Shown here piece by piece: positions 1-30,745 of a DNA stretch of 64,000 nt (position 1 is its first letter; every line of letters starts with the position of its first letter). The stretch covers positions 14,662,645-14,726,644 of the forward strand of contig OZ316893.1 in assembly GCA_973895155.1 (NCBI GenBank), written 5' to 3'. A program made the position numbers and the translations under genes. The stretch is from Marsupella aquatica. Taxonomy: Eukaryota; Plantae; Marchantiophyta. A model generated the notes under the pieces. The model made no database searches, had not been told where the DNA came from, and saw only the letters and a list, made by a program, of their open reading frames with translations.

Positions 1-3000
1 GAGTTGTTGACCTTCCTGCTCCGAAATGTGTTACCAGATGGTAATTCAATTCCAAAAAATATGTACGAGGCTAGGAAATTGATGTCTAACCTTGGGCTGA
101 ACTATGTGTCTATTGACGCATGCCCTGATGGGTGTGTTCTCTTTCGCAAAGAGCATGCAGATAAATTGACATGCCCTCATTGTGGTAAGCACAGGTACAA
201 GAATGTAGGGAAATGTACACACCCTGCCAAGGTTCTTCGTCATTTTCCTCTCATTCCTAGACTACAACGTCTGTTTAGATGCCCTGCCATTTCCAAGCTG
301 ATGACATGGACTCCTGATAACAAGAGCAGTGATGGCCTGCAGCGTCACATTGGAGATTCCAACCATTGGAAATTTGTTGATGAGAGGTGGCCACAGTTTG
401 CTACAGAGAAGCGGAACTTTCGATTTGGTCTATCACTGGATGGAGTAAACCCATTTGGAGACAAAAACAACCGTTATTCATGTTGGCCGGTTACGCTGCT
501 AAATTACAACCTTCCCCCATGGATGACTACAAAGAGGTTTTTTGTCATGATGGTGCTGTTAATCCCTGGACCAGCTTCTGTGACCGAGCAATTCATAGAT
601 ATCATGTTGGCTCCAGCAGTGGAAGAGTGGAAGACTTTGTGGATAGAAGGGGTGTTAACCCATGATGTTCTGAAGGGGCTTCTTCGACCCAGCCCCTTTA
701 GACTGCATGCAATTTGTTTGCTGGATATAGCAGATTACCCAGGCCATGGCATCATATCTGGACGAGTGACAAAGGGCTATGTGGGGTGCACACCATGTGG
801 GAAAAATGTGACAAGTGAGTGGTCGCATGCCCTGCACAGTATGAAATTTCAGGGGCATAGAAGGTATCTGCCTGTTGATCATCCTTACAGGCACACACGG
901 TCTCAAATTGCACACTTCAACAACAAAACAGAGCTTCGTGGCCCACCACAGAGGGTCACCAGAGAGCAAGTCCTGAGGTGGGCAGCCAGGAAGGCTGATT
1001 GGGACAAGAGAAGTGCCACTGATCGAGAACCTGAGGATCCAGTGGTGAAACATGGTGTGAAAAGACAGACCTTGATGGACTTGGAGTTGGAGTACTGGAG
1101 GGTAATGTACTTAGCCTCCAGCCCCTGTATGATTGCAATTTTAGATTGGAGCAATGGTGGATTGATGTTGGTTACAATCCTCCTATGTGGTTAATTAGTG
1201 TTTCTGTTGTTGAATTCTTTGCTTTGTGGAGTGCAGGAATTCGAGCCCAGCAAACACAATGTGGACGTCATGCACATTGAGAAAAATATTTGTGAGAGCT
1301 TGCTGAAGTTCTTGTCGGGTGAGAAAGATACAGGAGCAGTTCGAGCTGATATGCAATAGAAGGGGATTCGCCCTCACCTTTGGTTGAAGCCCCATGCAAG
1401 CAATCCCAATGTACTTCTCAAGTTCCAAGCTCCCTATGTGTGCACACAGGATGAATGGAAGACATTCTTGTATAGATTGAGCTGTCTGAAAGTGCCCTCT
1501 GGCTATGCTGGTGCCTTCAAGAAGCATATTACAAAGAATAAACGTGGCAGTATGAAAACACATGACTACCATGTGTTGATGCAGCACATTCTGCCCCTAT
1601 GCCTCAGAGGTCTCATGCAGAAACCAGTCCGTAATGTCATTCTTCGACTGTGCAATGTATTTCGCCGTATATGTGTGAAAGTGTGGGATCCCCAAGGATT
1701 GGAGCAGTTGAAGCAGGATGCTGCTTATGTCCTCTGTGACTTGGAGATATACTTCCCCCCTGCTTTCTTTGATGTTATGACTCATCTCCTAATCCATGTG
1801 GTAGAAGAGCTAGGGCAGTATGGGCCAGTCAGTACCAGATGGATGTACCCTATGGAGCGATACATGAAGTTGTTGAAAGGTCATGTGAGAACATACTACA
1901 GGCCAGAGGCTTCCATGGCATTGGGGTACATTAAGGATGAGATGTTGGGATTCCTAACAGAGTACATGGCTGGGTCTGGTGAAGCTATGACAAGAGTTTG
2001 GAAATCTGGTGAAGATGATGGAGTGAGTGGCGAGGTTGTTGAAGGTGTGGGACGTGCTGTTCAGCTGCCTGTTGCGATTCGAGACAAGGCTCATTCATAT
2101 GTGCTGGCAAACACAGAGCCTATGCAACCATGGTGGAGGTGAGTGATTGAATTGACTTGCCTTTGTTGTGATGCTTCTTGTCTGTTCCAAGGGTGATCTT
2201 AGATTGTCATGTGTTGTTTAGACTAACTATGCCTGTACCTCATATTGCAGGGAATATGATATGCAAAAAGCTGCACACTCTGGGCAGCAGGATCCCTTCC
2301 CACAGTTCGAGCAGTGGATTCGGGTGACAATTCGAGAGCATAGTAGACATCACCCAGATATGGAGAAGGATTTGTATCTTCTATCTGTGCCACCACGATT
2401 GTCTATTCTGACCTACAAACGGATGAGAGCTTATGGAAATCATTATCGAGTGAGGGATGAGCAGGGTGACCATTGTGTATCATATGATTGTGGTTTGATT
2501 TCTGTGTTTGAGCAGAGAACCTCTAAAGAACAGAGGGGGTGGATGAAGATGGGTTACGTGGGGGAGTTGACCGACATTTGGGTGTTGAATTATGGTAACA
2601 CAAGTGTCCCAGTGATATTGATGAAGGGATCATGGGTGAAATCAGAGTGGCAGAGACCAAGGGCCACCATGAAGCGTGATCATGATGGGTTCTTGTTGGC
2701 CAATTTTAGGTCCAGAGTACCAGAATGGTCTGAGCCTTTTGTTTTCCCTAGCCAAGTTGAACAGGCTTTCTTTGCAGATGTGGAGGAGTCACATGGCTGG
2801 AGGGTGGTATGCCATAGCCAAGCACGGAACAGGCGGATGGATGGAAGTAAAGTAGAGTTCAGTTTGGATGACCATGCTGCATTCGAGCATCCTAGTCATG
2901 AGACTGTACTTCCAACTCGGGCAGGGACTGACTACATCCCCTTAACATTGAGAGAGACATATGATGAACCTGGGCAAATGGAATATGATGAGGTTGATGA

Positions 3001-3010
3001 TTTGCAATAG
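1..3010 (+). pseudogene. CACTA TnpD transposase (Transposase_21 + DUF4218 + DUF4216), 5'-partial, with premature stop
   Basis: Motifs DACPDGCVLF, LRHFPLIPRLQRLF, LSLDGVNPF, YNLPPW, DYP, DVMHIEKN, MKTHDYH, RWMYPMERY, EPFVFPSQVEQ. Exons <1-1101, 1237-2138, 2251-3010 with GT-AG introns; in-frame TAG at 1357-1359 (probably CAG>TAG). Confidence 0.92.
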
Positions 3011-3187
3011 GCAACAGCTGGCGATTGGCAAGTATGAGGTTGAGGATGACTACCTGCACAGAGTCACAGAACGGGAATTGTTGCCTGGAATGATGTTTAG
3101 GATAGTTGGATATGCATGAAATTGATTGATACTTTGAATTTAGTGTGCTGATTCTCCCTGTTTGGTTGTGGGTGCTGTGCAGAAGCT

Positions 3188-6100
3188 ATGGGGGAAGAGG
3201 GTGATGACATGGAGACAGACATGGGGCTTGGAGAGTGGGGTGAAGAGGAAAGATTGGATATGGATGGAGACCCAGATGCAGGGGGCTCACAGAAAAATGC
3301 ACCTATGCAAGATGCACAGGGCCCTCATCAAGTCCCAGGTAGGTGGGCAGCTAGAGAGAAATCACATAATCCATACCTTAGAAGGAGCCAGAGTTATTGG
3401 CAAGGGACGCCTGATAATTATGATGATGACTATGATGGAGTAGAAGATGGATGGGATGAATATGAACACCCAGAGCGTGGTAGAGACGGGTACAGAGGGC
3501 AATGGAAAGGTGAGGAGGATGATTGGACAAGTAAGTGCCTTGTGCTAGTGATTTTGTGATGGTAGTAGAGATTTAGCTCAATATGCACTTATCTGATGTG
3601 TAGCTAGGGCAAAGAGTTTATCTTACAGGTCCATGAGTGTGGCATGTACCTGTTGGTATGCAGACTCTGATTGGGACAATCACGAAAACAACAAAGGCCA
3701 TCCACGTTCAGATAGGAGGCAATCATTCACAGGCGGGAGAAACGCCCCTAATTCATCAAGACAAAGCAATAGGACAGGTGGTCCAGAACCATCTATGCGC
3801 CAAGGGAGAGGTAACTTGGTCATTGCAGAATTGCTCTGAAGTCCACTGTATATTTGGCAGCGGGATTTATGATTCATACTTACCTAATGTAAGTGACTGT
3901 AAATGGATCCTGTAAATGTGCAGGGACTCCAGGGAGGTTTGGACAATGCAATCCAGGCCGTGGGGGGAGATCAGGCCGTGGAGGGACCCCAGGCCGTGGG
4001 GGGACACCAGGCCGTGGAGGGACACCTAGTAGCGCTTCAGGGAGTACCAAGGCAGGAGACAGTAACAAATTTGGTAAAGTAGAAGTGAATTCCGAAGGTT
4101 GGATAACTCCCACATGTGATGGTAAGAACCGTTGGCATTCTGACCTAAGAGGAGAAGTATTGCGTTGGTTAGATTTGAGCATTACAGAGTTTAGGAGTCA
4201 GAACAAAGCTGATTGGGCTGCTATCTGCAAGGACATTCTTGAACGGTGGGAGTATGTTGGTAATGATGGTAAGGGCCCAGTTGAAGATTGCATATCAGAT
4301 TATGCAATGAGGATTTTGAAACAAGAGAGGCATAGGTTGAAAAGGATATGGATAGACAATGGTTCTAACAGGAGAATGCCACCACCCCCATCATTGGAAC
4401 TGGATCAATGGACACGGTTAATCAAAGGGTTCATGTCGGAGGCTGGACAGAGCAAGAGTGAACTGATGTCAAATGCTCGAGGCAAAGTGAAACACCTTTC
4501 ACAGGCTGGGAGAGGAAGTTATGCTCCAGTGAAAGAACAATTGGTAAGGCAGTGACATGCCTGATAGTAAGCCTCAAACTTATCATCTTGCTACCATTAT
4601 TACATTTTCATTGACAATCAACACTTGGTTTCATTCATATGTATGTTGATGTGGACTGCAGAAGAAATTGACAGGTGAAGAACCATCAGCACAAGAAGTG
4701 AGAGAGGAGTTCATGAAACAAAGGAGTGAGGTGACAAGTGTAACTTCCAAACAGGTGATTATGTTGTAATTCTGTATGTTCTGTGACTATTTGGCCTTGA
4801 GCATCAGAAAGAAATGTAGTAGGAAGTAAGCAACCAGTTCTTGGGGACAGTTATCTGAGATATGTAAGCTGTGTTATGACAGGGAACTGTTACAACTCTC
4901 ACAGAGATGTGTGAACGGTTGAAGTCATTAGAGTGTGGACTCCCTCAAGTGGAAAGTAAATTGGCTGATCGTTTGGATATTGTGGAGGCATCTGTAGCGA
5001 ACCTTCTTGCATCAGTGGAATCTAATTTCAAGCTTGTGATTGAAAAATTGGGTGGTTCCCAACCAAACAATGAGGGCAACATTGTACAAAGTGTGCCCTT
5101 GTTAACAAAAAAGGGAATTGGCAAATCTGACACAGGTATGGAAATGACACCGGCCCATTGTTCATTGTGTCCTATGTTCAAATGTTAGAAGTAAGTTTTC
5201 ATGAATTGAGTGAATGGTTTGAATGCAGGAAGAGTGGAGGCAGAGAAGGACCCTGTAATCAGTAAGCAGAAGGCAAGAAGGTTGCTGAGACAGGTAACCT
5301 GCTATGATCCAGTACATTACATTTGAAAAGTGCATGGAGTTTTGTGAAGCTTAAGCCGGTTGGAGGTAATCTTTTCTGTAAGAACTGGTTGGATGAACTG
5401 GGATCTGAAGTGACATCATGATTGATGTATCAGGTGATTCAAAGAGCAATAATGAAGAAGATGTGCCCAGTGCCTCAGTGACCATAGCCAAGGAGGTATC
5501 AGGTAAGCTGATGCTTTAAATTCCTCTATATGAATGTTGAGCAATAATTCAGTGGTTAATAGATTCAACGTGAATATTGTGGTGTGTTTATTGATCAACA
5601 GAAGCAGACATGGAGCATATGGCAATGGCAAAGAAGGGGAAGAAGGCTGTTCATAATGGTAAGGAGATAGTGACAACTTTGTGGTTGGTGACATGTACAT
5701 TTAGCACATGTGATGAGTGATTCACTTATGTTGGACATGACACTGAATTGTAGTTGATGCAGAGTTGACAGACTCTCAACCAAGTGGGAGCAGGGTGAAG
5801 CGACGTCGAAACTTGGGTGCAACATTGGATGCAAGTAAGATTGTAGATGCTTCAATTGAAGCAAGTACAATGTTGGCAGATACTGAGATGATGTCGCAGG
5901 GAAATCCTGCTACACAATCAGAAGTGTCAAATATGGATGCAGATTCTTTGAAGAAGAGTGTAGCCAATTCTCGATCACCAGCACAAAACACTCGTGCCAA
6001 AGTCATGACTCGCAACCAAGGTATGAATAATGTCATGTATAAGCCACCCAGGAAAGCCAAGAAAAATAGCCAGGGTAAGGTGGAGGTGATAGCCACAGCA

Positions 6101-6358
6101 GAGCCAGTCCATAATCTTCTATCATGGGAGGATGACTCGCAGGTATGTGTGGGTACAGGCATTTTGCGACCGGATCATGCAAAATTCCATGGCAAAGTGG
6201 TCCCGGATGACCATGTAGTAGTGTTGTTGACTACAGTGATTGTATCTGATTGTAATTTGCCATTTCCGAATAGAGACGATGATCCACCTCAGGAAATAAT
6301 TGCAGATGCAGTAGGATCTCTTGTGCTCTGGCCATCAGAGTGTGTTAGTCTGCAGTGA
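3188..6358 (+). CDS. Multi-exon TnpA-like accessory gene of CACTA-1 (exon structure approximate, intactness uncertain)
   Basis: Acidic N-terminus, GRGGTP repeats, core exon ~3924-4543 (PPPPSLELDQWTRLI...SELMSNARGKVKHLSQAGRGSY, Transposase_24-like), and C-terminal exon with the En/Spm Tnp1-type signature VGTG...KFHGKVVPDDHVVV...LPFP...DAVGSLVLWP; several short GT-AG-bounded exons between them. Confidence 0.72.
3925..4028 (+). repeat. 18-bp coding tandem repeat (CCAGGCCGTGGRGGGACA-like) encoding GRGGTP
   Basis: About 4-5 imperfect copies visible; translation PGRGGRSGRGGTPGRGGTPGRGGTP. Confidence 0.85.
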
Positions 6359-6859
6359 CTGAATGCAAGTGTAGATAGAATCATGTGAATTGTGTCACAT
6401 TTTGACATTGCCTTGGAAAGATCCAAGAAATATCTGTACCAATTTTTCCATTTGGTAAAGAGGATGAAGGAGCCGTTGTGTGTGACATTGATATTTCTGA
6501 ATTTTGTATGTATGAAACAATTGATTGATGTCAAACTATGGCTCTATGGTGATTGTCTATGATACTTGAATCTGTTTTGTATCATTTCAGTATTAGTGTG
6601 TATGGTATAGAGGAATACTTTGTGACCTTCTTTGTAGTCTATGAAGTTTGAATCTGTGAATTCATATTAGTGTACATGGTATAGAAGATGGCTTTCTGAA
6701 ACTATGTATTCTAATGTTAACATGATGAATGGTGAACTTATAGAGTGAGTTCATTCAAGTACACAATAAAACATGAATGCAATATGTTATTTGTGCACAA
6801 GAGTGGGTTCATTCCAAGTAGTATAGTGGGGTCTTCATCACTCATATCCAGTTGACATG

Positions 6860-7185
6860 AAAGACTTATACATACCCCACAAAGTATATTTAAAGACTAC
6901 CCTCCATAACCTTTTTAGTCGTTCCCAACGATTCACCATCTCAGCCCATAAAAGACTGAAAACGACTCACCAAAGCTACCCACACAAAGACTAAAATAGA
7001 CTGAAAATCCAGTCTATTAAACGACTTATAAACCAGTTCTATAAAGGACTCAGTTGATTATAGTAACAAAACATACGACTCGCAGTCCTATAAAGGACTG
7101 GAGTCCTTCCCAGTCGTTTCCAAGTCCTATACGGTACTGAATAGTCGTTTAATGGGGTCTAAATACCCCCCAGTTTCTACTAGTG
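6860..7185. repeat. Subterminal repeats and right TIR of CACTA-1
   Basis: Many direct and inverted AAAGACT/ACGACT/AGTCGT/TATAAAGGACT motifs followed by the terminal TTTCTACTAGTG. Confidence 0.8.
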
Positions 7186-9906
7186 CATACACATAGTTTA
7201 TGTGACTAAAAGCAGCCACTTCTGCCCCTAACTTCATCACTCTCTTGATTGAATCCAATGGATTTACAAGTTTCTTTCCATTGTGAATAAAATCTTGATC
7301 ATGGAGCCCATAAGCATGAGAGGTTGCTCCAACACTGATCATGGAGTGGGTTAGTAACCATCCTTCCCACCTAAGATTTTGTCTAGGGCCTGGAATTTCT
7401 CTCCCATTGTAGTCTTCTATCATTAATTTCCTTCTTCTTGAGTCCCCATCACTAGCATGGCCCAACAAAGGTCCAACAGCCTCCAAGCAATGGGTGGCCC
7501 ACATTGACTGCAATTGAATCCATTGCTCCCTGACATAATCAGCAGTAAATTGACCACATGTACCAGTGCCCATGGCACAGAGACGAGGAAACTTGTCACA
7601 CAAAGGATTTACCATAATGCACCTAGCTTGGTGCCCTACAACATTAGTGTCAAAGGCCTCTGTAATGTTATTGAAACCAGTTTCACCCTCACCCACTTTT
7701 ATTGCCAGGCCAACACCACAAGTATGATTGTCTTTTTTCCCACAAAACCCAATAAGTGTATCATCCTTAGGCTGCCACCTCACTGTCTTTTTCACACAGG
7801 TTTCATCCTCTGCCAGATAACAAGGAATAGGCCCACATATTCCAAGTTGACTCTTCAGGTTTGAGTAAACCTGAGCAATGAACTTGAATTGTGAAGCATG
7901 CATGCCAGCACGGAAGACAAACATGCCACGCTTGTCTCTTTGTAGAGTGTTCAAACTAGGACCCAAACCATTTGTCTGGAGACAGTCTACTACCCGTCTG
8001 CCACCATGTAGAAACAGTGCTTGGCATAGGAGCTTTGTTCCTTTCCTCCATCGGTGGCCTGCCTTGCTTCGATTCAAGTTAGAAGCAACATCTTGAAGCA
8101 TATCCCATAATGCTTGCCTACCTCCAAAAGCCCCTTTCTTGTGTGCTTGAACAATGGAATTACATAATTTCATTATGTCCTTCCTGTTAATTGCCTCCTT
8201 ACATATCTCTTTCAGAGATGGTTCTTTAGCTGTGAGCATAAGCAAACGGTGTTGAAACCTCCTTGCTAGTTTTCTCTCCTTCCTGATAATTCTATGATAT
8301 TTCTTTGCTTGCTCTTGGACCTCCTCAGTTGTAAGGTAATCTATCCGCCTACCTTGACCTGTCCCTCTTTGACCTCTTTTCTCAACTGCAGTTACCTCTC
8401 TGAACACCCGTAATCTAAAGTCTGTTAGACTAGGTATGGTGAAACAATGGTCACAAGTCAACTTTATAAACCCACCACCAAGCCTTGATATTCTGGTACA
8501 CGATTTATGTCTGAAGAGACCTTCAATGACACAAATTTCATCGATCTCCTCACACCACACTTTGGCCTTCACTAGGGGCTCTGAATATCATAGGCAGTCT
8601 TCTTTATGTTGATCTTTAGGATATTCTTGATAGGCCTGGACTGGTTGCCATATACCCACTCACTTTGCCATAGTCCCCAACACAACAAGGAGAGGTCATC
8701 GTTATTACCTTTGCCTTTATCGGACGATGATAGGCCAGAGGCACTGCTAGAGCCCTGTTGACTCTCCTTGACAGATAGAAACCCCTGAATGGTTTTTTGA
8801 TGTTTAGCCCTCTTATCAGCCTGACGTGGTCATCCTGCACAGCCTGAGAGAATAGTAATATTGCTACTCACTCTTTGGCTTTTAGAAACTACATTTAAAT
8901 GATTGACTCCCACACAGTGAGTCTGGAGATTGGCCTCCAGATTCCGTTGTTTGGGTATCATCACCACATGTTCACAGCAGAAAATGCAGAACAGTTTGAA
9001 CTTGTGCAACTCCATTGGCTCTCTATTGATATCACCAACAATTTTGAAAGTTTTCTGTCCAACAGACTGTGAATCATTCACAGATTCCACTATTTGAACA
9101 TGTTGTTCAAGAGTGGCTTTATCACTCAAGATAGATGCTGCAGCTCGACAACTTATCTCTACAGAGTCCAATCTTTGACCTCTGTTTTTGGCAACATTCC
9201 TGGTATGCGTGGGTGTGATCAAATGCTTATTCTTGAAGTTGGTGAAAGCATTAGTAATGCTGGCTCTGTCCATGCTACCTAACTTTGAGGCACCTTCCAC
9301 ACGAACATCACATTCACAACATTCTATCTTCCCACATGCCACATTCTCAATGTCCCATGTGTTCACCTTCCATTGATGATCCTCACATTGAATGAATTTC
9401 ATGTGATCCCTCAATTTCTCCACTTGTGTTTGCGAGACCTTGGGAAGATCTTTTGTTATACATAAAGACTTGAAACTTGCTTGAGGATCAGTCTCTACCT
9501 CTGGGGTTTCAATGTCCACAATAGGTGGACTTTCTATAATTGGCTGGTCTAGTGGTGGACCTGCCATGACAAGGTCATCCACCGACAAGCTAAAAGTGGG
9601 AGAGAGACCATTGGAAGCTTTGCTGTCTAAGAGAGGTTGATCTTCACCTCCATCCTCAAATTCATATTTGGGAATAACAATGATTTTCTTCCTACATTCA
9701 TCTATGATATGGGCTTTTTCCCATTCCACCTCCATTTGACTATTGAGATTCATATCGTAAAATTGAAACTCAAATTTAAAGAGACACAGAGTCTCTAGCT
9801 TCAATCTGGCATCGGCAAATGTGTCATCAATCTTGTAACTAATGGATCCTACAGGTTTAGGATCCACAGACACATTGTCCAATCGAAAAACAGTTGCTGA
9901 GGGCAT
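7186..9906 (-). pseudogene. Zinc-finger + P-element/THAP9-like DDE transposase gene, decayed and truncated by the CACTA-1 insertion
   Basis: ORFs 8830-9906 and 7186-8572 join through TGA 8830-8832 (likely CGA), a frameshift near 8615 and a TGA near 8588. Motifs YLAEDETCVKKTVRWQPKDDTLIGFCG, GHASDGDSRRRKLM and QDFIHNGKKLVN resemble the P-superfamily DE..IK....Y....D...GF, SD(G) and D..H..K..RN blocks; N-terminal CxxC...H...H fingers. Confidence 0.7.
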
Positions 9907-9979
9907 TTAGTCAAGTCTGCAAAAATTTCACAAAAAAAACAATCAACATCATCCTGAAATTCACTACAACATATTTTGC

Positions 9980-10460
9980 CCTTTTGCGAAGCTCATTTGA
10001 GTCCGGACACACGTTTGCGATTCTAGATGCTTCAAACCGTTGATGACTCAATACGCATCGCAATTTGCGATACTTGTGGTATCGCAACTTTGGTCTTCCA
10101 TGCGATTTGCATCGCAAACATTTTGCGAACTTTATTGTATCACAATAGTTTGCAAAACTACAGAGATTACAAAACACATTACGAAGGCTCCGTGACCGCT
10201 CCGAAAGTCCGAAACCATAGTAACATTAATGATGCGAAACAATTAGTATTGGAGGATGTTTGCGAAAAGGTTAGCTTCAAACAATTTGCGATGGGTTTGT
10301 ATGGCAAATGTGCGAAACGATGTGGATGGTAAAGGTGGGATGGTCTGGATATCGCAAAATAGTGAAGCGTATAGTATGGAATAATTGAGAAACGGTTTAA
10401 ATGGCAGAATTGCGATTTGGTTGGGATTTGTTTAGTTTCGCAAACAGTTTGCAAACGTTT
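9980..10460. repeat. TTGCGA/TCGCAA motif cluster A (upstream of P-like gene)
   Basis: About a dozen copies in both orientations, e.g. TTTTGCGAAG, TCGCAATTTGCGATA, TCGCAAACATTTTGCGAAC, TTCGCAAA. Confidence 0.8.
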
Positions 10461-10861
10461 ATGTTAGACTTGTGTGTGCATCTAGGTTAGAGTTTGAATG
10501 GGGGAGGAGGAGGGAGGGAGGTGAAAGGTGAAAGAGGGAGGAAGGGAGTTGGAAGGTGGATGAGGGACGGAGGAAGAAGGGAGTCCAAAGAGGGTTTACT
10601 AAAAATAGGAGAGACTTTAGCGAAGAGGGAGGGAGGAGAAAAAGCTATGGAGTTTTTGGAAGAGGAAGGAGAGTTTGGGTTCAAAGAGGGAGGAGGGATA
10701 AGGGAGGGAGTACCCATGTCACTTATATGCATGACCTCTTTTGAAAGTAGGAGTCCAAAATGAAAATACCTACCACACTAATGGTGTATAAAATATTAAT
10801 TAAGAAACAACATGAACAATCCATGATATAGATTTTTGGTTTAAATATCCATAAGTGTCTC

Positions 10862-13800
10862 TCATACTTGGTCACCTTCAATGTCCTCTACATCTGACAC
10901 AAAAATAGTGTCTAGCTTGTCTGAAACAATAGAACGAGACCGTGGCACATATGTGATGACAAGTGACCACTCTAGGTCTAAGGGGTATGGAACGTAGAAA
11001 CATTGCTCCAAGTGAGATGGGAAAGTAAATGGCTCTGACGTTTGCCAATGGGATGCTTGAAAACTAGTGGCACTTGTCCTCAACCGTGTAAACCCACTCT
11101 CATCTTGGAGTACAGTGCGATTATTACCAACAAGGTTCACTTTGAACCACTTGCACTTGAAGACATACTCCTCAAACTTAGATTGGTTGTCATATGAGAC
11201 CACCAAAATCTCCTCTATCTTCCCATAGTGTGGCACAACATCACGAACAATGTTCCTGTCATGTCGGCTACTCCGGGAGTCCTGACAAAACTGCCCTTGA
11301 ACTCCACAATCAAAAGTACGAGCCCTCTTCTCATCAAGGGAAGAAATCCTGAAATTAACAAGACCCATATATTGTTACTACTACACAAAAAACACTAATC
11401 ATGTTATGAGGAACCTTTCATACCAAAAGAGAAAAACACACTTATCTTAAGTAAAATGATTACTATATCTTAAGTAGTAGTACATGAATATGGAAAACAA
11501 GGTTAGGAACTAGTGAAACCTGAAGTGTCTCCCTTGGGTCCACATGGCCGTCTTGGATGTTACCACTCTCAAAGGGCCATGAACAATGGTCCGAATGTCA
11601 TTTGTCATAGTAGGAAACTGTGAGACATCTCCTCCTTGTGCCAAAATGCCATCCAACTCAACCAACTTTTCCTTCATAAACTCATGCAACTTAGGAAAAA
11701 TCCTTGCCCTTTGACTCATTCTTTTGGCATTGTCATAAAACTCCCTCCATTCATCCATGACATTGCTATTACTCAACATGAATGTATTCAACTGTGTCCA
11801 CTCTGTTGATGTAAGCATGCGTGTTTTTGTTGCTCCTGTTAAACAGTCCTCCTCTTGCCTCTCCTCCATCCAAGTACGTGGTAAAGTCCGATCAATGGTG
11901 GCCAAGATGTTACTACAATAAAACATGCTCTCTGCAGCCAAGTATCCTGTAGCTATGCTTCCCTCCACTCGTGCACGGTTACGTACATAAGCCTTCAAGA
12001 CTGACATGTAACGCTCAAGCCAGTACATACATCGACAATGAACTGGACCAACAATGGCAACCTCCCTCACAAGATGCACAAGTAAATGAACCTGACAATC
12101 AAAGAAGGAAGGAGGGAGGGCCTTCTCCAACTTGCAAACCACCTCAGCAGCCAATACCTCCATTCCAGGAATCTCTTCCACATATATCTCCTTTGAGCAT
12201 ATCCATCTCAACAAACGACCCAATGACCAAATGGCATCTTGCACTTCTTTGGTCCCCAACCCTATAATTGCCACTGGCAATATATGCTGCAATAAGCGGT
12301 GATAGTCATGTGTCTTGAGATACCGTGGCCATTTGTGATTGTCCTCCATCCCAAAAGCTTTCCTCAAATTGGCACCATAGCCTGTAGGAAACCGCATCTC
12401 CCCTATACGATTCCGGAATTCACGTCTTTGGCCAACACTAAGCACCCAAGGAGCAGAAGGACGATGTTCCAAACCTGTGGCAGGATCAACTTGTACCCAT
12501 ACATCTGGATGCATTTCCAACTCTTCACATGCCTCCCTGAAGTTAGTGTCCTTCTCCCCATAAAAATGAGCTATCAACACCTTCCCCACATTTCCCTCTA
12601 TGTGCATGGGGTCTAAAAGATGGCGGATCTTCAACTCTGACCAATAGGGCAAACTGGCTAGTATACTCCACCTCGTCAACCCAGTACCATCAAAGGTGAG
12701 GGGATCATCAGGGTCTGCCACCCTATCAGCTAGTGACTTCCAATGCCCAAAAGTTGTTGGTTCCGGAATTTCCCGCATATCACCAAGGGGCATGTCAAAG
12801 GAGGAAAATAAAAGTGGGTCAGACCTCATCTCATGCCCCATCGGAAGAAACTTTGTATGCCCAATGTAAACAATCTTCCTAAGCCATGGGGACCAAATTG
12901 CCATATCTTGCAATTGTGGACCACAGGTGGAGCAAGCTTTGTACCCCTGAGTTTGCAATCCAGAGACAAAGCCAAACCCTGGTTACACCAAAAATAAAAC
13001 CAGACTAAATGTTAGGGTTGTCACATGACAAACAAGTATATTAAAGAGCATATCAAAGAAGGGTGGCATATGGTCAAAAAGTCATCTTACCAGGATAGTC
13101 ATGCATTGTCCAACAAACTACCCCTCTCAATTTAAATACACGTGGAATGCCTCCTATATTTTTCCTGCCATCGTATGCCCACACTCCACCCCACAGTTTT
13201 TGGAGTTCTCCAATCAATAGTGCCAAATAAGTGTCAAAGTTCTTCACCTTTTTTGGACCTGGAATAATCAAAGACAGCAAGAGGAACCCCTTCTTCATGG
13301 ATAGCCATGGTGGAAGGTTGTAATTCATCACAACCACAGGCCAAACTGATGTAGGTCTTCCCTTGCCTCCAAGGGCATGAGGACTAACCCCATCAGATGC
13401 CAATCCCAACCTCACATGACGAGGATCATGTGCAAAGTCTGGCCATGTTTCCTCAATATGTTTGACTGCAGGAGAGTCAATTGGCAACCGCATAACACCA
13501 GGCTCTGATCGATGAGTCTTATGCCATACCATCAACTCTGCCAAATCAGAACACCTGTACATGTGCAACAATCGAGGAATGATGGGAAACCAACGAACAA
13601 CTTTTCTTGGCACCTTCTTTGTAATCATGTTGGGGTCATACCATGGCTCATGACATTCAGTACACTGTGTCTTCTTCTCATCGGCCCCATGAAATAACAT
13701 GCAATCATTCACACATGCATGAATGATATGATATTCCATGCCAATTGATGAGAGAACACGCTTGGCCTCCTTCCAAGTTCCTGACAACACATTGCCAGAA

Positions 13801-14275
13801 GGTAACATAAGGTCATGGCAAAGTGCAAACATATCAGATAACAAGGCATTGCTTGCCTTGTGTTTGGCCTGTAGATTCATCAACCCCAAGATAGCAGAAA
13901 GACGACTCAAACGAGCACCCTCATAGATAAGAGTTCGGGCATGTTCCTCTGCTTCCTCCCATTGGCGCTGTCCCTCAGGGGTATGTCTTGGTCGTGGATC
14001 ATTGGGGGGCACATGACCTCCTTGATCAGCAGACACCTCAGCATCATCACCAGGGATGTCAACACCAAACCAATCAACCATAAAATCATCCATGGCTCTA
14101 TCTTGGTCATCAATAACCTGTTCATATGTTCTGGGTACATTGCGATCAGGGTTGTTGCTTCCACTGTCACTTGATGAGGAATGTGACTCAGAGCCTTTCC
14201 TTCTTCCGGCATACCCATTTCCCGATATGCTGCTCTCAATCTCCGCGGTAACATATTTTGAGAGGGTCGCACATT
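10862..14275 (-). pseudogene. CACTA-2 TnpD transposase (Transposase_21, DUF4218, DUF4216); probable 1-nt frameshift near 14197
   Basis: Exons ~14275-13091, 12978-11520, 11348-10862 joined by in-phase GT-AG introns; motifs HACVNDCMLF, FPIIPRL, LASDGVSP, YNLPPW, HDYPG, DPMHIEGN, LKTHDYH, MYWLERY, EPFTFPSHLEQCFY. The first coding exon is probably the TAD exon 15569-15336. Confidence 0.88.
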
Positions 14276-14418
14276 CTAAAAACAATGCAAACAATTGAAA
14301 GTTACAAAGCAAATAGTTACAACATGTAGAAGAATATATGGGGGTGTGCAAACATGAAATAATATCGGTACTAGTGTAAATACAAAATGTGGCCAAACGC
14401 CATGTGTATGGTCATTTT

Positions 14419-15569
14419 CTAATCCCACACATAGTGAGTAAACAACTCATCACCTGAGTGAATGGTCCTAGTAGCTACAACCAGACAATGGTCATGATGA
14501 TATGTCTGGCCATAAGGGGCTGGTGGAGGACCCTCAATGAAAACCCACTCACAATTTTGCCTACGCTTGGGGCGAGTCCCCACAGTACTGTTTATGAAAC
14601 CAGCTATATTCCCAATTCGTATGGGGTCCCCATCTATCACCCGCTGCTCACTATACCTCCTAGTGTTTCCATCAAAAGTATCTAACTCCAAGGCATAAGT
14701 CTTCCACTCAGGATGTTGTGCAAGGATCATGTTCCAATGTCTTCTCTTGTAGATGGGTCCACCATAAGGAAACAACGTAGGTCCTTCTCGACCGCGTCCA
14801 CCACTACCACTCTCGGTATCCACAATGATGTCTTCACAAGCAAAAACTCCATAGCCATGTCTATCCCCAAGTGTGGAAGGTTTGATAACCCAACGTCTTC
14901 CCCAAACCTCTACCTCCTCACCATAGGAAAGCTCTTGTGGCAAACCAAGAGTCTGGGGATCCCAGTCCTTGATGATAGGAACACATTTGCCAGTAAACTC
15001 ACAATCACCCCACCTACCGGTAACCACTGCCTTGTACAAATCAGTATCCCCTTGGGGCCGTCTCTTGGAACGCTTTCTCCCTCTTGGGACAACAGGCTCA
15101 CCCCCAACTACCCTAGGACTGGAGGGGGCTGTTGCTAGACCCAAGGCTTGTGAGAATGCATTGCCTATAGCATCTAGAACACCTTGTGATGGGACATAAG
15201 GTGCTGATGCCGCAGGTCTAGGCCTACTAGATACCTATTCCACCCAAACCAAAACAAACAACGAGAGGTGTGAAATTAAAAACCTTCACCATTGCGATGT
15301 GGAAATAGGGTAGAAACTAAGGCGTAAACACTTACCACATGGGATGAGGAAGCCCCTGTTGTATGACGTCCGTAACGTCCATATCTCTCAATATGCTGGG
15401 TGCATATATAGGACTTTTGGGAAACCTGACCCACACATTTGGCACATTGGCAAAGCTGACGGGGTGGACCACGAGGAGGAGGTGCAGTCGTGTGAGGTTG
15501 AGGAGGAGGTGGTATATCTTCATCGGAGGAGGAAGAATCTGTGGTGGAGATCTCAGAAGATGAAGACAT
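14419..15569 (-). CDS. TAD + SET-domain protein (putative lysine methyltransferase), exons 15569-15336 and 15234-14419, 349 aa
   Basis: Exon 1 has CQCAKC...CTQHIERYG (CACTA transposase-associated domain pattern CxCxxC...H...G). A 101-nt phase-0 intron GTAAG...AATAG joins it in frame to an open exon with SET motifs IKPST..HGYGVFA.EDI, PYGG, IDG....GNIAGFINS, NCE, VVATRTIHSGDELFTHY. Confidence 0.85.
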
Positions 15570-15999
15570 TGCCCCTACAAAGATGTATAATTTGCAAGTT
15601 AGGGGTTATTACCAAATAACATCACAATATCAAGCTGGACAAATGTAAGTTCTCAAGTAATGATGACATGAAACCAAACACAAAAGGAACACTAAAAAAT
15701 ACCTTTCTGAGACCCAGGCTCAGCGGTGCCAATTAATAGGTCTTGTGGCTCTAAAATAATGAACCGAATCTGGAAGTATGAGAAAAGCTGCAAGTACACA
15801 AAGCGAACACCTTACATACATGTCCTCTTCATAGATAGTGGGAACCAAAATTTTTAATTACATGAATAAGCCTAACTAGACCCATCTATTTTAGTCCGTA
15901 CCTCCAGATGCCCGGGCTCTCACGATGCATACGCATTAGCTAGTATCAATTCATGCAAAAGTGCCGCACCCTGCAAGTTGTCATAGCTCCTCCTCCTTT

Positions 16000-16470
16000 G
16001 TTAGCATAAAACCCATGGAAAAACCATTAAAACCCAAAAGATCCATAAAACCCATTAAAACCCATAAAACCCATGGTAAAACAACTAAAACATTAATCTC
16101 ATCTAACCTTGCTTTGCCTTTTCCAAACCCTCACCCCCAAACCTCTGACCTATTACAAAAACCTAGACCCTCACTCCCAATCCCCTTCCTCTCTTTTGTT
16201 TTAAACCCTAAACCCTTGCTTGAACCCTAAAAGCCTACAACCATAAATGCAAACCCTGCTTAAACCCAAAATTAAAGACTTAAACCCTAAACCCAAACCC
16301 AACTTTAATCCTAAACCCTTTCCTCACTTATTAATTTTAAACCAAAACCCAACTCTTATCAAAATTAGCCTACACCCACACCATGTATAGCTTAAAAACC
16401 GGAAGGTTTGACTGGTAATCTCGCTTTTAACCCCTAACAAAACCAGCTTCATCCAAGACCCAACCCTAAC
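16000..16470. promoter_or_regulatory. AAACCC/AAACCCTA (telobox-like)-rich divergent promoter region between TAD/SET/TnpD and TnpA genes
   Basis: Numerous AAAACCC and AAACCCTAA motifs between two divergently oriented genes; promoter role is inferred. Confidence 0.4.
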
Positions 16471-16609
16471 AAACGCCGGGATTTGAAACGGCGGAATTTC
16501 TTAATTACACAAAAGGGCATAGTATAACTTACATGGCCTAAACAAAAGGAGGAGGGAAAGAATGTGAAAAAAAATTTTGCCAGGAATTGCCACGATATTG
16601 AGAACTGAC

Positions 16610-16830
16610 CTGCTTCGCAACCTGCTTCAGAATTTGGTCACATTATTTGCGAAGCACAATGTTTCACAACAGCTTCGGAAAAACAGAGCCCAAGAGCGTT
16701 TTTTCGCGTCTCTGCAGCTTTGCGAAGGCTTTGCGAAGCGTGTGGTTTTGCATTGGTTTTGGAAAGTTGAGATACTAGTTGCGAAGCAGGCTGATTCGCA
16801 AATTGCGATGCGGACTGCATCGCAAATGTG
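16610..16830. repeat. TTGCGA/TCGCAA motif cluster B (upstream of TnpA-like gene)
   Basis: TTCGCAA, several TTGCGAAG, TTCGCAAATTGCGAT, TCGCAAA. Confidence 0.8.
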
Positions 16831-16939
16831 TTTTGTCTGGGCATTCGGACCTTCCCGCCGGGTTACGAGGCCCATTCGACGTTTTTTGAAGTGAGGGAGG
16901 GCAGGAGGAGAGCTTGCGCGCGCTTGGTGTTGGATAGCT

Positions 16940-19005
16940 ATGGATTCTAGTGGAGGGCGTGGAGGGGATGGGGCAGGGGCAAGTGGGAGTGGGAGTGGGA
17001 GTGGCAATGGCAATGGAGGGAACAGGAATGAGGAGAGTAATCAATGGACGAATTTGATGGCCGAGCATCTCAATGCCACACAGCTGAGCCATTTGGATTT
17101 GAGTACACTAGCTGGGATTGCTTCTTTGAGTGCAATTCTAGGGCAAGCTTTGCAAACCGGGGTTGCAGCAGGGCAGGCTCAGAGGGAGAAAGAGGCAAAG
17201 GCTGCAGCTGAGGAGAAGGCCAGAGAGAAGAAACGAAAGAAGGAGGAGAGGGCTAAGGCAGGAGTACTCTCTCCTGCAGCCCTCAAAAATAAGAGGAGAA
17301 GGGAGGAACGAGATGAGATTCGAGCACAACGTGAGGCGCAGCGGAAAAAGGAGGAAGAGAGGAAGAAGCTGCCATTGATTGCCTTGGTTGAGGGCATTCC
17401 TACTGAGTTGGCCTACACTGGGGCAAAGAGCACTATCAGGCTTGCTGTGAGGACTAGCTTTGCATGAGGTGTTGAGTGGGGGAAACTAAGCAGAGCAGAG
17501 CAGAGGAAAGTAATGACTCAGGTCAAAGATTCATTCAGAAATGGAGCAGAGATTGATGACCAGTGGCTTGCAGATAGAATTTCGAATTCAATGTCTCAAG
17601 CACGATACCATGATAGGAGGAAGGTGAGGGCCTACCTAGCAAGCTTGCAGGAGTACAGGAACGTGAGGATGCCAGTGCAATTCACAAAGGATGTGTGGAA
17701 CGCGTTCTATAAGGTCGAGGTGCAGCTGAAAGTAGCCAAGGACCTCCAATTCTGGAAGGAGAAGGAGGCCAAGGCACTTCAGGCCGGGAAGTCAGACAAA
17801 GACCTCAAGGCATTGGCTGAGAAGGTCTCTCAGCTGCAGCACATCGTGGATGAAGTGGGGACACCACCCCAGAAGTTCATCCTTGCAGCAAACCGAGTCA
17901 GCAAATGCCCCAAGACCACACACAAGATGGGGCAAGGTGGACTTCCCAGCCTGAAAGCAACCTTCGTGAGTCCTCTCCCCTCCTCCCCTGCTTCTTTTCC
18001 TTTGCCTTCAACTGTTGTTTGCTTGCCTGCAATGCCCCTCGCTGACCTCTGCTTTACCCCTTATGGCCTCCCCTTTCGTTTTAGGTCACCCTGACACATT
18101 GCGTGCCTTAGTCATTTCTCGGATTTTTTTAAAAGCACAGTTTGCGAAACAATTGCGAAGCGGGTTGCCTTGCAATTGTTTCGCAAACTCTATTATAACC
18201 TTTTTCCCGTAAGGTTTGCGAAGCCATTGCGAAGCAATCCGATTCGCAGTCTATTTCACAAACTTAAATATATTTGAATTTGCGAAGGTGGGACTTTCGC
18301 AAAGCTTGTTTCATTTTGAAAAACGTTTAGTGTCGAGTGACAAATGTTTGTTAGGGTAATGGGGTTTTTTTCTGGTTAGGGTACCCTTTTTACCCTTTTT
18401 AGGATTCCTTTTTTGCTTAAGTACCCTTAGTTACTAACCCGGGCCCCTTATGTTTTGGTGTTTCATTTTTTTGTGGTAGTATAAGAGGTACCGCCGCAAG
18501 ATAACAACAAAGGAGATGGAGATAGGGGCAGAGCATGGGGCCAGACATCTCTTTGAGTTGGTTGATGCAGAGTTGGCTAGTGTGAGTGATTTGTAGTACC
18601 CTTTCTAAACCCGCACCCATTCCATTTATAAGGTTTATACATTTTTCCTATTAACCCTAAACCCGAATTAACCTTGTGACATGGAAGCAGGATAAGGAGG
18701 AGCAGGAGGGGAGTGAGGATAGCAGTGAGGAGGATAGCGGCGCTGATGATGGGGACACTACCGGGGCCACCACGAGTGGGTCCAGAGGGGCAGGGAGTGT
18801 TGCCACACCTAGCACACCAGGAGACCAGGAGGATGATGATGAGGATGATGACGATGATGAGGATGAGCCAGATGGGGAGGAGCAACAGGCACCACCACCA
18901 CCGCCACCACCACCACCACCCCCCTCCCATCCAGCTTGTCCCGCCCAAAGCAAGAAGGACAAGGGAAAGAGGCCAGCAAAGAGGAGTAGGCGAGCTCCAT
19001 TCTAG
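16940..19005 (+). pseudogene. TnpA-like accessory gene of CACTA-2; exons ~16940-17965, 18480-18581, 18691-19005; in-frame TGA at 17465
   Basis: ORFs 16940-17467 and 17513-18094 are in the same frame across one TGA (likely CGA); basic coiled-coil, helical core, KTTHKMGQGG (En/Spm Transposase_24-like H..G..G), acidic/Pro-rich last exon; GTGAG donors and TAG/CAG acceptors. Confidence 0.62.
18130..18305. repeat. TTGCGA/TCGCAA motif cluster C (intron of TnpA-like gene)
   Basis: TTTGCGAAACAATTGCGAAG, TTCGCAAAC, TTTGCGAAG, TTGCGAAG, TTCGCAAAG. Confidence 0.8.
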
Positions 19006-19219
19006 AGGATGCAGATGTAGTTCACTCCATATGGCATATGGATTAGTCAAAGGACAGTGTCTTGGTATTTGATACCCCATAGGGTTTTAGAAAACCCTAA
19101 TTTTTGTACATTCAGGGATTTTTGGCATATATAAAGTTTTGCTTTGGTATCTTCATGTGGAGCAATAAGACCCCAACCCAATTATGAACCCAAATATACA
19201 AAACCCAGCCCTCAAACTA

Positions 19220-19792
19220 TCCTTGCGAAACACATGCGAACGCCATACTATCGCAAACTTGCCATACATTGAGTATTGGAACATTGCGATACTTTTGGTT
19301 CCGCAATTGTGCGACACCCTGACTGACGCAGTTATGCGATACCATATGAATGGCAACGGAATTGTCAAGACAACAGCTTCGCAAATAAGTTATGGTTTAG
19401 AGCGCGTCGCAAACCGATAAAGAGTCTGTCGAGATCGCATAAATGTGATTTATGTGCGATAAAATAAGTTTCGCAGTGTGCGAAGGTGTTGCAAAGGGGT
19501 TGCGAAAGTCCGATTGCGAAGCTGTGGGTTTCAAAGAATGCGAAAGGGTTGTGATGCGTAGCGTTTCGCAAACGCTGGAATTTCATAATTTGGTCCTTTG
19601 TTAGTTGCGATGGGACAGGGTTCGCAAAAGGGGTTGGTAGTGTTGTAGTGATTGTTTCATGGGATAGACTTTCCATTGAAAGAGAATATTTTCTATAGAC
19701 ACAGACCTAAAGAGAACCCAATGATTTGAAGACCATATTCACAGGACCAATCCCAAGAGAGCCTTGCCCCATCCCGGCCATTTCTCCTAGTG
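19220..19792. repeat. Subterminal TTGCGA/TCGCAA cluster D and TIR of CACTA-2
   Basis: Dense motif copies in both orientations at 19220-19630, then terminal TTTCTCCTAGTG. Confidence 0.85.
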
Positions 19793-24446: not shown

Positions 24447-24870
24447 CTTCCAAGAAGGTGCCAACATCCCCAACATCATGTTCAAACACTCCCCATCATC
24501 AGTTCAAACACTCCCTCGATCTATAGCTCAATACCAATAAAACAAATCTCAGCCGTCTAATAAATTCTCCAAAAGTGTACTTATTATAGGCACGTATTGA
24601 GGCACATATTAAACCATGTCCACTCTACAATATCTAGACATGTGTAGCAATCCGGCACTGATGTGTGGCAAGCCCATATTAGGTACCCTTGCAAAATGCG
24701 ACTTGAGATATTTTTTTAATAACCCCTACATTCATTATAATCAAAAGCATCATTAAATAGGGGCTTCTTAGTTTGTAAACAATTATAACAATTAGTCAAA
24801 AATGGGATTAAAAAACCCCTTGAGATGTTCGCACGAGGGGTCCCGTATTAGTTAAGCTAAGGGCCCAGGG

Positions 24871-25890
24871 TGCAGGGTATTGGTGGCCCACAATGCACAA
24901 GGACACCTATAATTTTATTAAATCATGTGATCCGTGCCAGAGAGTAGGGAAACCCACTGCATCTTCTAAGTGGCCCCTAACTCCCATTCTTCCCTTGGCA
25001 CCTTTTGAAAAGTGGGGTATAGACTTCATTGGCCCCATTTCCCCAGCTGCTCGTCGGAGTCGTAGTAAGTATATCATTCTTGCAACTGATTATGCCACCA
25101 AGTGGGTGGAGGCTAAAGCAACCAGGAAGAATGATGCGAACACTGTTGCGGCATTTCTATTTGAGCATATTATCACTCGCTTTGGCTGTCCCCTAGAACT
25201 GGTGAGTGACCGTGGCCTGCACTTCCTAAATTCCACTATTGAGTTGATCACGGATTTATACCTCATTAAGCACCGCAAGACTACTCCATATAATCCACGG
25301 GCGAATGGCTTGACCGAACGAGCTAATGGGATTATGGGAAAGATCTTAAATAAAATGGTGGCATCTCACAAGACTGACTGGGATGTAAAATTGCATTATG
25401 GGCTTTGGGCTTACCGTACTGCCAAAAAGATTACAACCCTTCGAACCCCATTTTATTTAACTTATGGGGTTGATAGTATTATCCCTATTGAGTTTTCCAT
25501 TCCTACTGAGAGATTACTTATTCCTGAGAGATTCACTCCTGAAGCAAGTCTAGAGAGTCGGTTTGTTGATATTACTAAATTAGAAGAACATCGAATTTTA
25601 GCTTTAAAACATACTGCTGTAGTACAAGAACAACGGAAACACTCTTATGATAAAAAGCTTAAACATGTTAAGTTAGCTGATAATGATTTAGTGTTAGTTT
25701 TTGATTCACGCTACATGCTTTTTCCGGGTAAATTACATACCCATTGGATAGGCCCTTCTAGAATTGAGAAATAATGGCCCAATGGTTTCGTATCCTTAAC
25801 CACTTTAGATGGATACCCCTTAGATACTAGAATTAATGGCTTTAGATTAAAGCAATATCACTTGTCTTCCACTCATGAGGACATGTCGTA
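24871..25890 (+). pseudogene. Ty3/Gypsy integrase (3' part of pol)
   Basis: GYWWPTMHKD...CDPCQR zinc-finger end, FEKWGIDFIGP, ATDYATKWVEA, VSDRGLHF, YNPRANGLTERAN, TPFYLTYG, GKLHTHWIGP; stop at 25772-25774; 5' end cut at a TIR-like GGGCCCAGGG. Confidence 0.93.
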
Positions 25891-25990: not shown

Positions 25991-26140
25991 TGTGGACGCT
26001 TCCTGAAGCGTCCACACTAGAGAGCCAGATCTGTGGGCCGCTTTCTGAAGTGTCCATGAGATAATACGACACTTTTGGGAGGCGTCCGCCTGCTGACTCG
26101 GGATTTCCGTCCGGATTTGGGCCGCTTTCTGAAGCGTCCA
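25991..26140. repeat. Cluster 1 of palindromic GGACGCTT-YCTG-AAGCGTCC repeats
   Basis: TGTGGACGCTTCCTGAAGCGTCCACA at 25991-26016 plus two or three degenerate copies. Confidence 0.85.
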
Positions 26141-26626
26141 GCATAAGTTAGGAATTTCTGAACATTCTCGAGTACGGTGATGGATTGTGACATCTAACGG
26201 GTCGAAGAAGAGAAACGGCGAGTGGTCCAAGAAGCCAAGTTCAGTAGCGCTCACTACTGATGGTTGACATAGAGGAGGCGGAGGCCCTGATTGAAGTAAG
26301 AGTGGAGCTGCGACAGAGGAAATTGCAGATTGAGCGATGGCGGAAATAGAGCTAGATGTCACTGCGCGTCCGATAGTTGTTGTGATACCATTGAGTATAC
26401 ATGATCGAAGGCGATTCAGAGAAGATTTGACGACTATGGGCTTGAAGAATCTCTTGAAGTTTCCTTGGAGTATTTGCGAATTTAGCTTGATCGATTGAGG
26501 CAAATGGGACGGAGAGGAAGGACCGGAAATACGCGCGAGGCCAAGCAATTGGAATGAGGAGCTCATTTCATCAATTTATTCGACTCCGAGCGTAGGCCAA
26601 GGATTACAGAAAGTAGAAGGCGAACC

Positions 26627-29954: not shown

Positions 29955-30745
29955 GACGACGCTTTCTGAAGCGTCCACTCCAATAGGACGCTTAATTCAA
30001 GTGTCTGTATTCCATGCAAGGACGCTTTCTGAAGCGTCCCCAGTCCAAAGAGAAAGAAAGCCCAATACAGCTGAGGCGTCCATATGTGACGCCAGCCAGC
30101 CAGACGCGACACCTTTCTGAAGCGTCTGTTGGTGAAGAAGTAACTATACGGACCCAGAAGAGTGAAGGTAGCGACGCTTTGAAATACAGCCGCTAAGTGA
30201 GGACGCTTTCTGAAGCGTCCGCCACCCAACCAGCTGTACTCCAACACTCTGCAATCCACCCGACACCACGACGCTTTCTGAAGCGTCCACATGAGGAGCG
30301 ACATTTTCTGAGGCGTTCGCTACCCCAAAGGCGATATCGACACTGCGACGCCCACGGAAGCGTCCCGCCCGAAGACCAGAAGCCGGACGCTACAACTCAA
30401 AATCCAGCCAACACTCTCTAAAGCGTCCACAAAAGTCCTTTGGACGCTTCCTGAAGCGTCCACTATGTTCCCGACACTTAGAAATATTTTCAGTTTTCGC
30501 ACTTTTATAACACCGCGTCACTTTTACCGATTTATTTGAGGCACTTGGGGATCTTAGAAAAGTCTGAAACTTCGTCAGCATAGAGATTATATGTAGTAGA
30601 GTATCCTAGAAAAGTTTCAACTCATTCCGACTTTTAGTTTAGAAGTTAAAATTAGATTAAGATCACTATTTATTAGTTTTACCAAAAAACACCGACGCTT
30701 TACAAAACCTTCACTCAAACCTTGACGCTTTCTGAAGCGTCCATT
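29955..30745. repeat. Cluster 2 of palindromic GACGCTTTCTGAAGCGTCC repeats in the Gypsy 3' non-coding/LTR region
   Basis: About 9-10 copies (near 29958, 30020, 30113, 30201, 30270, 30303, 30413, 30442, 30724) with irregular spacing. Confidence 0.85.

Follow-up and report, generated by a model that had tools for sequence, protein, structure and literature searches.

Why should a transposable element carry dense clusters of a CpG-containing hexamer not only at its ends but also deep in its interior, in DNA that is otherwise poor in CpG? The question is raised by a stretch of 64 000 nucleotides (the window) from the liverwort Marsupella aquatica (assembly GCA_973895155.1, contig OZ316893.1, positions 14,662,645 to 14,726,644 of the forward strand), in which four clusters of TTGCGA/TCGCAA had been predicted from the letters alone (the original prediction). 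All four, numbered here from left to right, lie in a single 9.7-kb CACTA element (9689 bp; 9962–19650 of the window). For the two internal arrays, ahead of a TnpA-like gene and within its first intron, we lean, a little beyond an even chance and by analogy with known elements, towards a role as dimer sites of the TnpA-like protein, at which a central promoter would be reopened and transcription driven.

Four motif arrays in one CACTA element

The hexamer occurs at 59 sites in the window, 39 of which fall within the element where 4.9 would be expected (order-2 Markov model), and it is the most enriched 6-mer between 9962 and 19650. The four predicted clusters are real: they hold 37 of the 39 element sites (12, 8, 7 and 10), against means of 0.3–0.6 and a maximum of 4 in dinucleotide shuffles (2000 per cluster). 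Clusters 2 and 3 account for 15 of the 37 clustered hexamers, 1.3–6.7 kb from the nearer or farther element end. Cluster 2 is situated 115 bp ahead of the TnpA-like ATG, 6.7 kb and 2.8 kb from the element ends, and is adjoined by a donor-like GTAAGT on the minus strand (~16533), while cluster 3 begins 177 bp past the exon-1 donor of the same gene. The other non-coding stretches (TnpD introns, the later TnpA intron and 15.6–16.6 kb) contain one pentamer in total.

Many of these sites are paired in a fixed geometry. The pattern TTGCGA-N11-TCGCAA, which was picked for the search after the data were seen, has 14 matches (at most one mismatch) in the 64 kb, all of them in the clusters (3, 4, 3 and 4) and against 0.04 expected; the inverted pairs of the original prediction recur in this form, but its literal pair, TCGCAA-N-TTGCGA, is present only twice. 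Eight exact pentamer-core pairs have this spacing (CpG-to-CpG 15), whereas 5000 permutations averaged 0.47 and never exceeded 5, and the class one helical turn longer (CpG-to-CpG 26) contains five pairs against 0.46, the preference remaining clear after correction for the choice of the best class (p=3e-4). The same motif and 11-bp spacer are found in terminal and internal arrays alike. The core TCGCAAA is present 24 times in the element, with a flanking consensus of approximately GYWTCGCAAA, and the consensus is tighter for the 15 internal sites, GCTTCGCAAA (G 80%, C 73%, T 87%), than for the 22 terminal ones. Among related loci (see below), L013 concurs with this tighter consensus and three Sphagnum-type loci do so less.

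Only four short 11-bp doublets (2–2.6 copies) touch the clusters, none of them in cluster 3; an origin of the arrays in tandem repeats was considered and rejected for this copy, in which the sites do not lie in long tandem repeats. Local duplications are visible in some relatives, with the promoter cluster doubled or tripled upstream of the TnpA-like gene in L014, L047 and L052.

The element is bounded by short terminal inverted repeats (TIRs) of the CACTA type, CACTACAACA on the left (from 9962) and the inverse of it on the right (to 19650). An empty-site joint, 9958>19651, was found in contigs of two runs (X1 and X3) from two studies; it skips 9692 positions, i.e. 9689 plus 3, so that the element and one target duplication are missing from the empty site. 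This joint has 27 letters on its shorter side at a likeness threshold of 85, and X1 is possibly the source of the window itself; runs with small shares (X6–X9 and X11) were set aside. In X1, contigs on the element are ~99% alike to it and ~10 times deeper than contigs at 21–22.5 kb, which suggests a young multi-copy family, the depth figure being no copy number. All four features tested for the CACTA (En/Spm) superfamily were present (TIR, 3-bp duplication, TnpD domains and subterminal repeats at both ends), and the repeats, in both orientations at both ends, are clusters 1 and 4, the ordinary subterminal arrays of a CACTA element. The original prediction was correct in calling clusters 2 and 3 internal and non-coding, but had also placed cluster 1 internally, '5' of the P-like gene'; as it starts 22 bp inside the left TIR, it is an ordinary left subterminal array.

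Conservation and CpG decay of the internal arrays

A scan of metagenome contigs gave at least 178 confirmed relatives among 600 candidates, and the best 80 were analysed. Seventy-nine of these loci are at least 86% identical to a Sphagnum-named protein, with L013 representing a third lineage at 67%; the TnpA-like proteins are ~55–67% identical across lineages. Measured from the exon-1 donor, the motif peaks of the relatives (−1500 to −1050, +60 to +300 and +880 to +1560) match those of the window. Two or more motifs were present in the promoter region of 36/36 relatives, in the intron of 71/72 and in the subterminal region of 21/26, compared with 0/59 and 0/80 for exon 1, 2/40 for exons 2–3, 1/19 upstream and 0/23 beyond the end. 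The 11-bp-spacer pair is the commonest class in the relatives as well (promoter 36/36, intron 68/72, subterminal 20/26), the right TIR directly follows the third cluster in 16 of the 25 loci of sufficient length, and 17 loci have the TAD exon upstream in head-to-head orientation. Conservation of the internal clusters, as predicted, is thereby upheld, nearly all of it within one lineage.

The DNA around the motifs has fared differently. Alignment of the window to the relative loci by blastn is almost confined to coding DNA, and promoter plus intron DNA stripped of motifs, from one representative of each of the three lineages, scored 16–22 against shuffle maxima of 23–27 (200 shuffles), whereas exon 1 scored 115–293 across the same three. 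In each of the three lineages the internal arrays flank the first exon of the TnpA-like gene and, to judge from these alignments, their position, motif and spacing have outlived the surrounding DNA.

This turnover bears on the idea that the internal clusters are functionless relics, the ends of nested or fused elements, which we regard as very improbable. A TIR-like word, GGTGTAGTG, does follow cluster 2 in Sphagnum-type relatives, and some [CG]TAGTG word is found in 22/29 promoter stretches, part of them in the coding start. However, the TIR-like word is absent after cluster 2 both in the window and in the L013 stretch, the element TIR CACTACAA stands beside neither cluster (0/29 promoter and 0/70 intron stretches), TTGTAGTG does so in 0/29 and 1/70, and the most mutable bases have persisted while the DNA around them turned over. 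A relic without function is largely refuted; a relic origin followed by co-option is possible. Nested elements around clusters 2 and 3 were also sought and discarded, no TIR pair with a target duplication being found there; the condition named in advance as fatal to internal binding arrays, that they be ends of separate elements, did not materialize.

The CpG content of the arrays reflects the motif itself. Observed/expected ratios in clusters 1–4 are 1.41, 1.08, 1.49 and 1.43 against 0.33 in the rest of the element (8.3 kb), as anticipated for blocks that keep their CpGs. That part of the prediction does not extend beyond the motif: for CpGs at least two changes away from it, the ratio is 0.36 in the internal clusters (5 vs 13.7) and much the same outside them, at 0.37 for the remaining non-coding DNA and 0.36 for coding DNA, and the internal CpG excess is that of the motif alone.

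Decay was compared in aligned Sphagnum-type copies, L013 omitted (75, 44 and 27 rows, or 68, 42 and 25 without near-duplicates, with 1, 11 and 5 further rows dropped as less than 85% alike). C>T or G>A changes ran at a rate of 0.094 for 66 motif positions, 0.114 for 58 further CpG positions of the clusters and 0.095 for 22 exon CpG positions. A tree of 66 copies required, per CpG position, 5.38 C>T steps in the intron cluster vs 5.44 in the exon (T/A positions, 0.58 vs 0.27). Against the majority contig of four runs, with two rows of a minor related contig omitted, the window copy itself differs at 13/701 positions; nine of these differences are C>T or G>A, eight of the nine in CG or CHG, and two such changes destroy motifs of cluster 3, where 2/13 CpGs are lost vs 2/9 in the exon. 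To judge from these mutations, inserted copies would be methylated in the clusters as elsewhere. CpGs of clusters and exons decay equally fast, so that the arrays would be explained by selection acting in the active lineage and not by lasting protection from methylation, and the data point to their retention by the lineage that goes on transposing; a transient open state of active copies is beyond what the decay test can show. As originally proposed, then, the blocks do resemble selected protein-binding platforms, but 'kept unmethylated' has to be given up, with motif CpGs decaying like those of exons and two motifs lost.

That the blocks are unmethylated islands whose CpGs survive by escaping methylation is, on these data, the least credible of the explanations weighed here. 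Over the four clusters together the non-motif ratio is 0.53 (22 vs 41.2) against 0.36–0.37 elsewhere, and 16840–16940, although it has no exact motif, reaches 1.09, so that the region may have a slight effect at the ends and promoter. The internal clusters nevertheless remain at the background ratio given above, and C>T steps per site (5.4 vs 5.4) and the CpGs lost in the window copy are alike in cluster and exon.

Genes of the element and its surroundings

Two units stand head-to-head around cluster 2, a TAD-SET-TnpD unit on the minus strand and the TnpA-like gene on the plus strand (Table 1). The TnpD frames match PF02992 (3e-37), PF13960 (1e-32) and PF13952 (1e-7), and the TAD-like exon, which has no Pfam match, is probably spliced to TnpD. 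The SET frame has 44 homologues (best 72% identical) and no useful match among PDB sequences; its core carries NS/NT where NH is usual. Named homologues of both the SET and the TnpA-like frames are from Sphagnum and Calypogeia. Annotated TAD-SET proteins of these two genera are 57–72% identical over the whole query (14419–15569, minus strand), a moss–liverwort identity that may reflect strong constraint or transfer. The coding parts are CpG-poor as predicted, and one stop of the expected CGA>TGA type was confirmed: the TGA at 17465–17467 is the sole stop in TnpA-like exon 1, and the codon reads CGA in 57 of the 71 relatives in which it was found (TGA 9, CAA 4, AGA 1).

Table 1. Coordinates in the window of the CACTA element's features and of the adjacent P-like gene.
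Feature	Position	Strand	Remarks
P-like transposase gene, outside the element	7186..9906	-	PF21787 lead, score 0.96, family on 53% of cluster
Left target site duplication ATT	9959..9961		
Left TIR CACTACAACA	9962..9971	+	10/10 identical to inverse at right end
Cluster 1, left subterminal array	9984..10443		12 hexamers, 3 dimer sites
TnpD-type CACTA transposase, three open frames (Transposase_21, DUF4218, DUF4216)	10862..14411	-	Putative exon limits
SET-domain frame between TAD-like exon and TnpD exons	14419..15234	-	PF00856 E=5e-6, 27.3 bits, cut-off 22.4
TAD-like (CxCxxC) first coding exon	15336..15569	-	Joined to SET in annotated relatives
Cluster 2, internal, predicted shared promoter of head-to-head genes	16598..16825		8 hexamers, 4 dimer sites
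TnpA-like gene	16940..19005	+	Predicted exons 16940-17965, 18481-18580, 18691-19005
Cluster 3, internal, TnpA-like intron 1	18142..18302		7 hexamers here, 9 in majority contig; 3 dimer sites
Cluster 4, right subterminal array	19223..19627		10 hexamers, 4 dimer sites
Right TIR, TGTTGTAGTG on +	19641..19650	-	Same end in 16/25 relatives reaching it
Right target site duplication ATT	19651..19653		

The P-like transposase gene, which the original prediction had counted as an integral part of the element, is no such part: it lies beyond the TIR and target duplication, the empty junction was recovered in two runs, and its frame, flanked on one side by the 9962–19650 element, is cut at 7185 by the right end of a second CACTA. 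Its two frames found no match in the 80 related loci (a weak test, as almost none reach the left end), nor was there a useful match among PDB sequences. The gene belongs to an older host element hit by two CACTA insertions. This P-like element is apparently multi-copy, with other copies ~88–90% alike.

Several further features were noted in the window. The second CACTA (1–7185) encodes a TnpD and then a TnpA-like frame, head-to-tail, with its end at 7185 (TTTCTACTAGTG) within the P-like frame; six copies of its own motif ACGACT are present, only at 6917–7143. Nine near-palindromes, GACGCT-N4-GAAGCGTCC, lie in two CpG-rich patches (25994–26145 and 29958–30745) downstream of an integrase frame (24824–25774) and make up a further array of a CpG motif, this one in a different element of retrotransposon-like type. 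Frames that by eye look MULE-like (54170–55728) are enclosed by a perfect 41-nt inverted repeat, which is nested in an 82-nt, 96% inverted repeat (47740–56721), and a 423-codon frame on the plus strand (37039–38310) resembles, also by eye, a host BTB/BACK-domain gene.

Candidate binders and known self-regulating elements

On the reading favoured here, the predicted TnpA-like protein would dock as dimers on TTGCGA-N11-TCGCAA. Both genes would be transcribed outward from the middle of the element, so that their promoter would lie kilobases from the ends, too far for the terminal sites to act on it. With arrays flanking its first exon, the TnpA-like gene would offer the dimers a place to bind, from which, in analogy to TnpA-Spm1 of Arabidopsis, they would reopen a methylated promoter and switch on both genes, the terminal arrays serving transposition. 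Most copies would be methylated and losing sites, and the motif CpGs would be kept because only copies with intact arrays found new bursts. The neighbouring head-to-tail CACTA, with its own motif at its end only, is one case that speaks for this reading. We infer the TnpA identity of the plus-strand gene from its position, from a three-helix unit in the model of a relative and from a pattern, W...H-x-x-G-x-G, which is visible in the protein and which we take to be that of TnpA proteins. The structure looked for was a tandem pair of helix-turn-helix motifs, both tri-helical, ~45 residues apart; in the model of relative P0047, a single three-helix unit is confident, at 142–218 (142–159, 171–182 and 193–218), and other helical groups are of lower confidence.

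Several observations weigh against this reading. The limits of the promoter, intron and subterminal regions were set after the motif peaks were seen, and with 79/80 loci in one lineage the relatives amount to about three independent observations. Decay of motif and exon CpGs in the aligned copies does not differ (p 0.82), i.e. no local methylation protection is seen. The full Arabidopsis 10-mer, CCVTCGCAAA (bioRxiv 10.64898/2026.08.24.746577), is found once in the element, and since motifs differ among Arabidopsis Spm families, the shared 7-bp core may be convergent. PF03004 (Transposase_24) matched none of the window frames, the 21 alignment members or the 19 distant hits, and profile comparison of the TnpA-like protein with the TnpA-like frame of the neighbouring element gave no match. 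PDB sequences and the ESM Atlas (best 0.78) lent the protein no support, and nor did fold searches for a TnpA identity, whose lists were filled by long helices. Known TnpA-type proteins may themselves lack mutual similarity (PMC2613891), so that a missing match lowers the case for membership and not that for analogy. Finally, the intron array may suit a roadblock as well as an activator.

The same binder could indeed have the opposite effect, the internal arrays, chiefly that of intron one, acting as a roadblock or repressor in negative feedback, an outcome we judge unlikely. Cluster 3 is inside the transcribed region, just past the donor, and the cluster CpGs have no detectable protection; maize TnpA on subterminal sites blocks RNA polymerase and regulates itself both positively and negatively (PMC2613891). 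Cluster 2, on the other hand, precedes both genes, as would be expected of a site for an activator, and TnpA-Spm1, with the same core, is an activator; the two effects are not exclusive.

A slightly smaller chance is given to the internal arrays being transposition enhancers, which would help the ends to meet and take no part in transcription. Their motif and geometry equal those of the terminal arrays, and a TnpA4:TnpD2 model bridging distant DNA has been proposed (PMC13547354), but in each of the three lineages both arrays flank exon 1 of the TnpA-like gene and the other non-coding stretches are almost free of the motif. Less probable again is a different binder of the motif, a host factor or the TAD-SET or TnpD protein in place of the TnpA-like one. 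The assignment of the latter is unconfirmed, and the motif is constant across the divergent TnpA-like proteins, unlike the fast co-divergence described for Spm and VANC systems; yet the dimer site is confined to this element within the 64 kb and occupies the two subterminal regions, where TnpA sites are known to lie.

A wider proposal, which we hold to be doubtful, adds the SET enzyme: TnpA-like dimers on internal arrays at a two-way promoter, together with a SET protein writing a histone mark there, would form a self-contained anti-silencing switch in a bryophyte CACTA clade. If this switch existed, a TnpA motif would have been conserved between bryophytes and Arabidopsis in combination with a VANC-like layout, and TnpA-type self-regulation would go back to the base of land plants.

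In maize En/Spm and in Arabidopsis families, the promoter is at the 5' end, among the terminal sites. As here, maize En/Spm and Arabidopsis EN/SPM2, 5, 6 and 9 combine TnpD with an accessory gene and have subterminal repeats read by TnpA, and maize TnpA regulates its own element (PMC2613891). TnpA and TnpD of these elements come from one spliced gene or from two head-to-tail genes (PMC13547354), whereas the genes here are head-to-head around a central array, and the SET frame inside the TnpD unit is likewise a difference from maize En/Spm and Arabidopsis EN/SPM. A SET gene on a cut-and-paste transposon is known from HarbingerS and MuDR families of Phytophthora (cited in PMC12730594); the present case differs from these in being a CACTA element of a land plant, with SET fused to a TAD-like exon. 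A SET-domain gene is hereby revealed within a CACTA transposon of plants. Our literature search, which left Repbase and most subscription journals outside, found no report of internal arrays of TnpA sites, of CACTA genes placed head-to-head or of plant CACTAs with a SET gene.

The original prediction had looked to VANC. According to PMC5735166 and PMC10398659, VANC targets in VANDAL (MuDR) elements resemble the present arrays in having a short motif in introns, intergenic and terminal non-coding regions, but those motifs multiply through the growth of tandem repeats and are quick to change; here, spaced pairs lie in non-repeated DNA with one motif across lineages. VANDAL elements also belong to the MuDR superfamily, whereas ours is a CACTA. 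The internal non-coding motifs expected of VANC targets are thus present, but neither tandem repeats nor a VANDAL/MuDR element encoding VANC is (no VANC-type Pfam match among the seven element frames scanned), and with a core that matches the TnpA motif, a VANC-type target is not what this locus contains.

The closest counterpart is Arabidopsis Spm1, also a CACTA/Spm element with a clustered motif of core TCGCAAA, dense at both termini. As reported (bioRxiv 10.64898/2026.08.24.746577), TnpA-Spm1 (KAKUSEI) binds CCVTCGCAAA clusters at Spm termini, where clusters of at least four motifs confer specificity, brings about CG hypomethylation via ROS1/DML2/DML3 and activates the element, and TnpA-like proteins are apparently restricted to flowering plants. 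There, binding and hypomethylation are at the termini only, internal methylation being largely unchanged, whereas half of the arrays here are internal; dense clusters are common to both, but clusters 2 and 3 break the terminal confinement. The motif maps of other Spm families in that paper could show internal sites. The sites here further differ in being pairs with an 11-bp spacer, in a bryophyte and not a flowering plant. By analogy, the element would combine TnpA/Spm-like self-regulation with a VANC-like internal layout. TnpA sites have been described as terminal, and the same core beside a promoter predicted to have moved suggests that, where the promoter goes, the binding platforms go too, and that self-control of this kind may be much older than the flowering plants. 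The sharply defined TTGCGA-N11-TCGCAA makes binding, dimer spacing and the effect on methylation directly testable.

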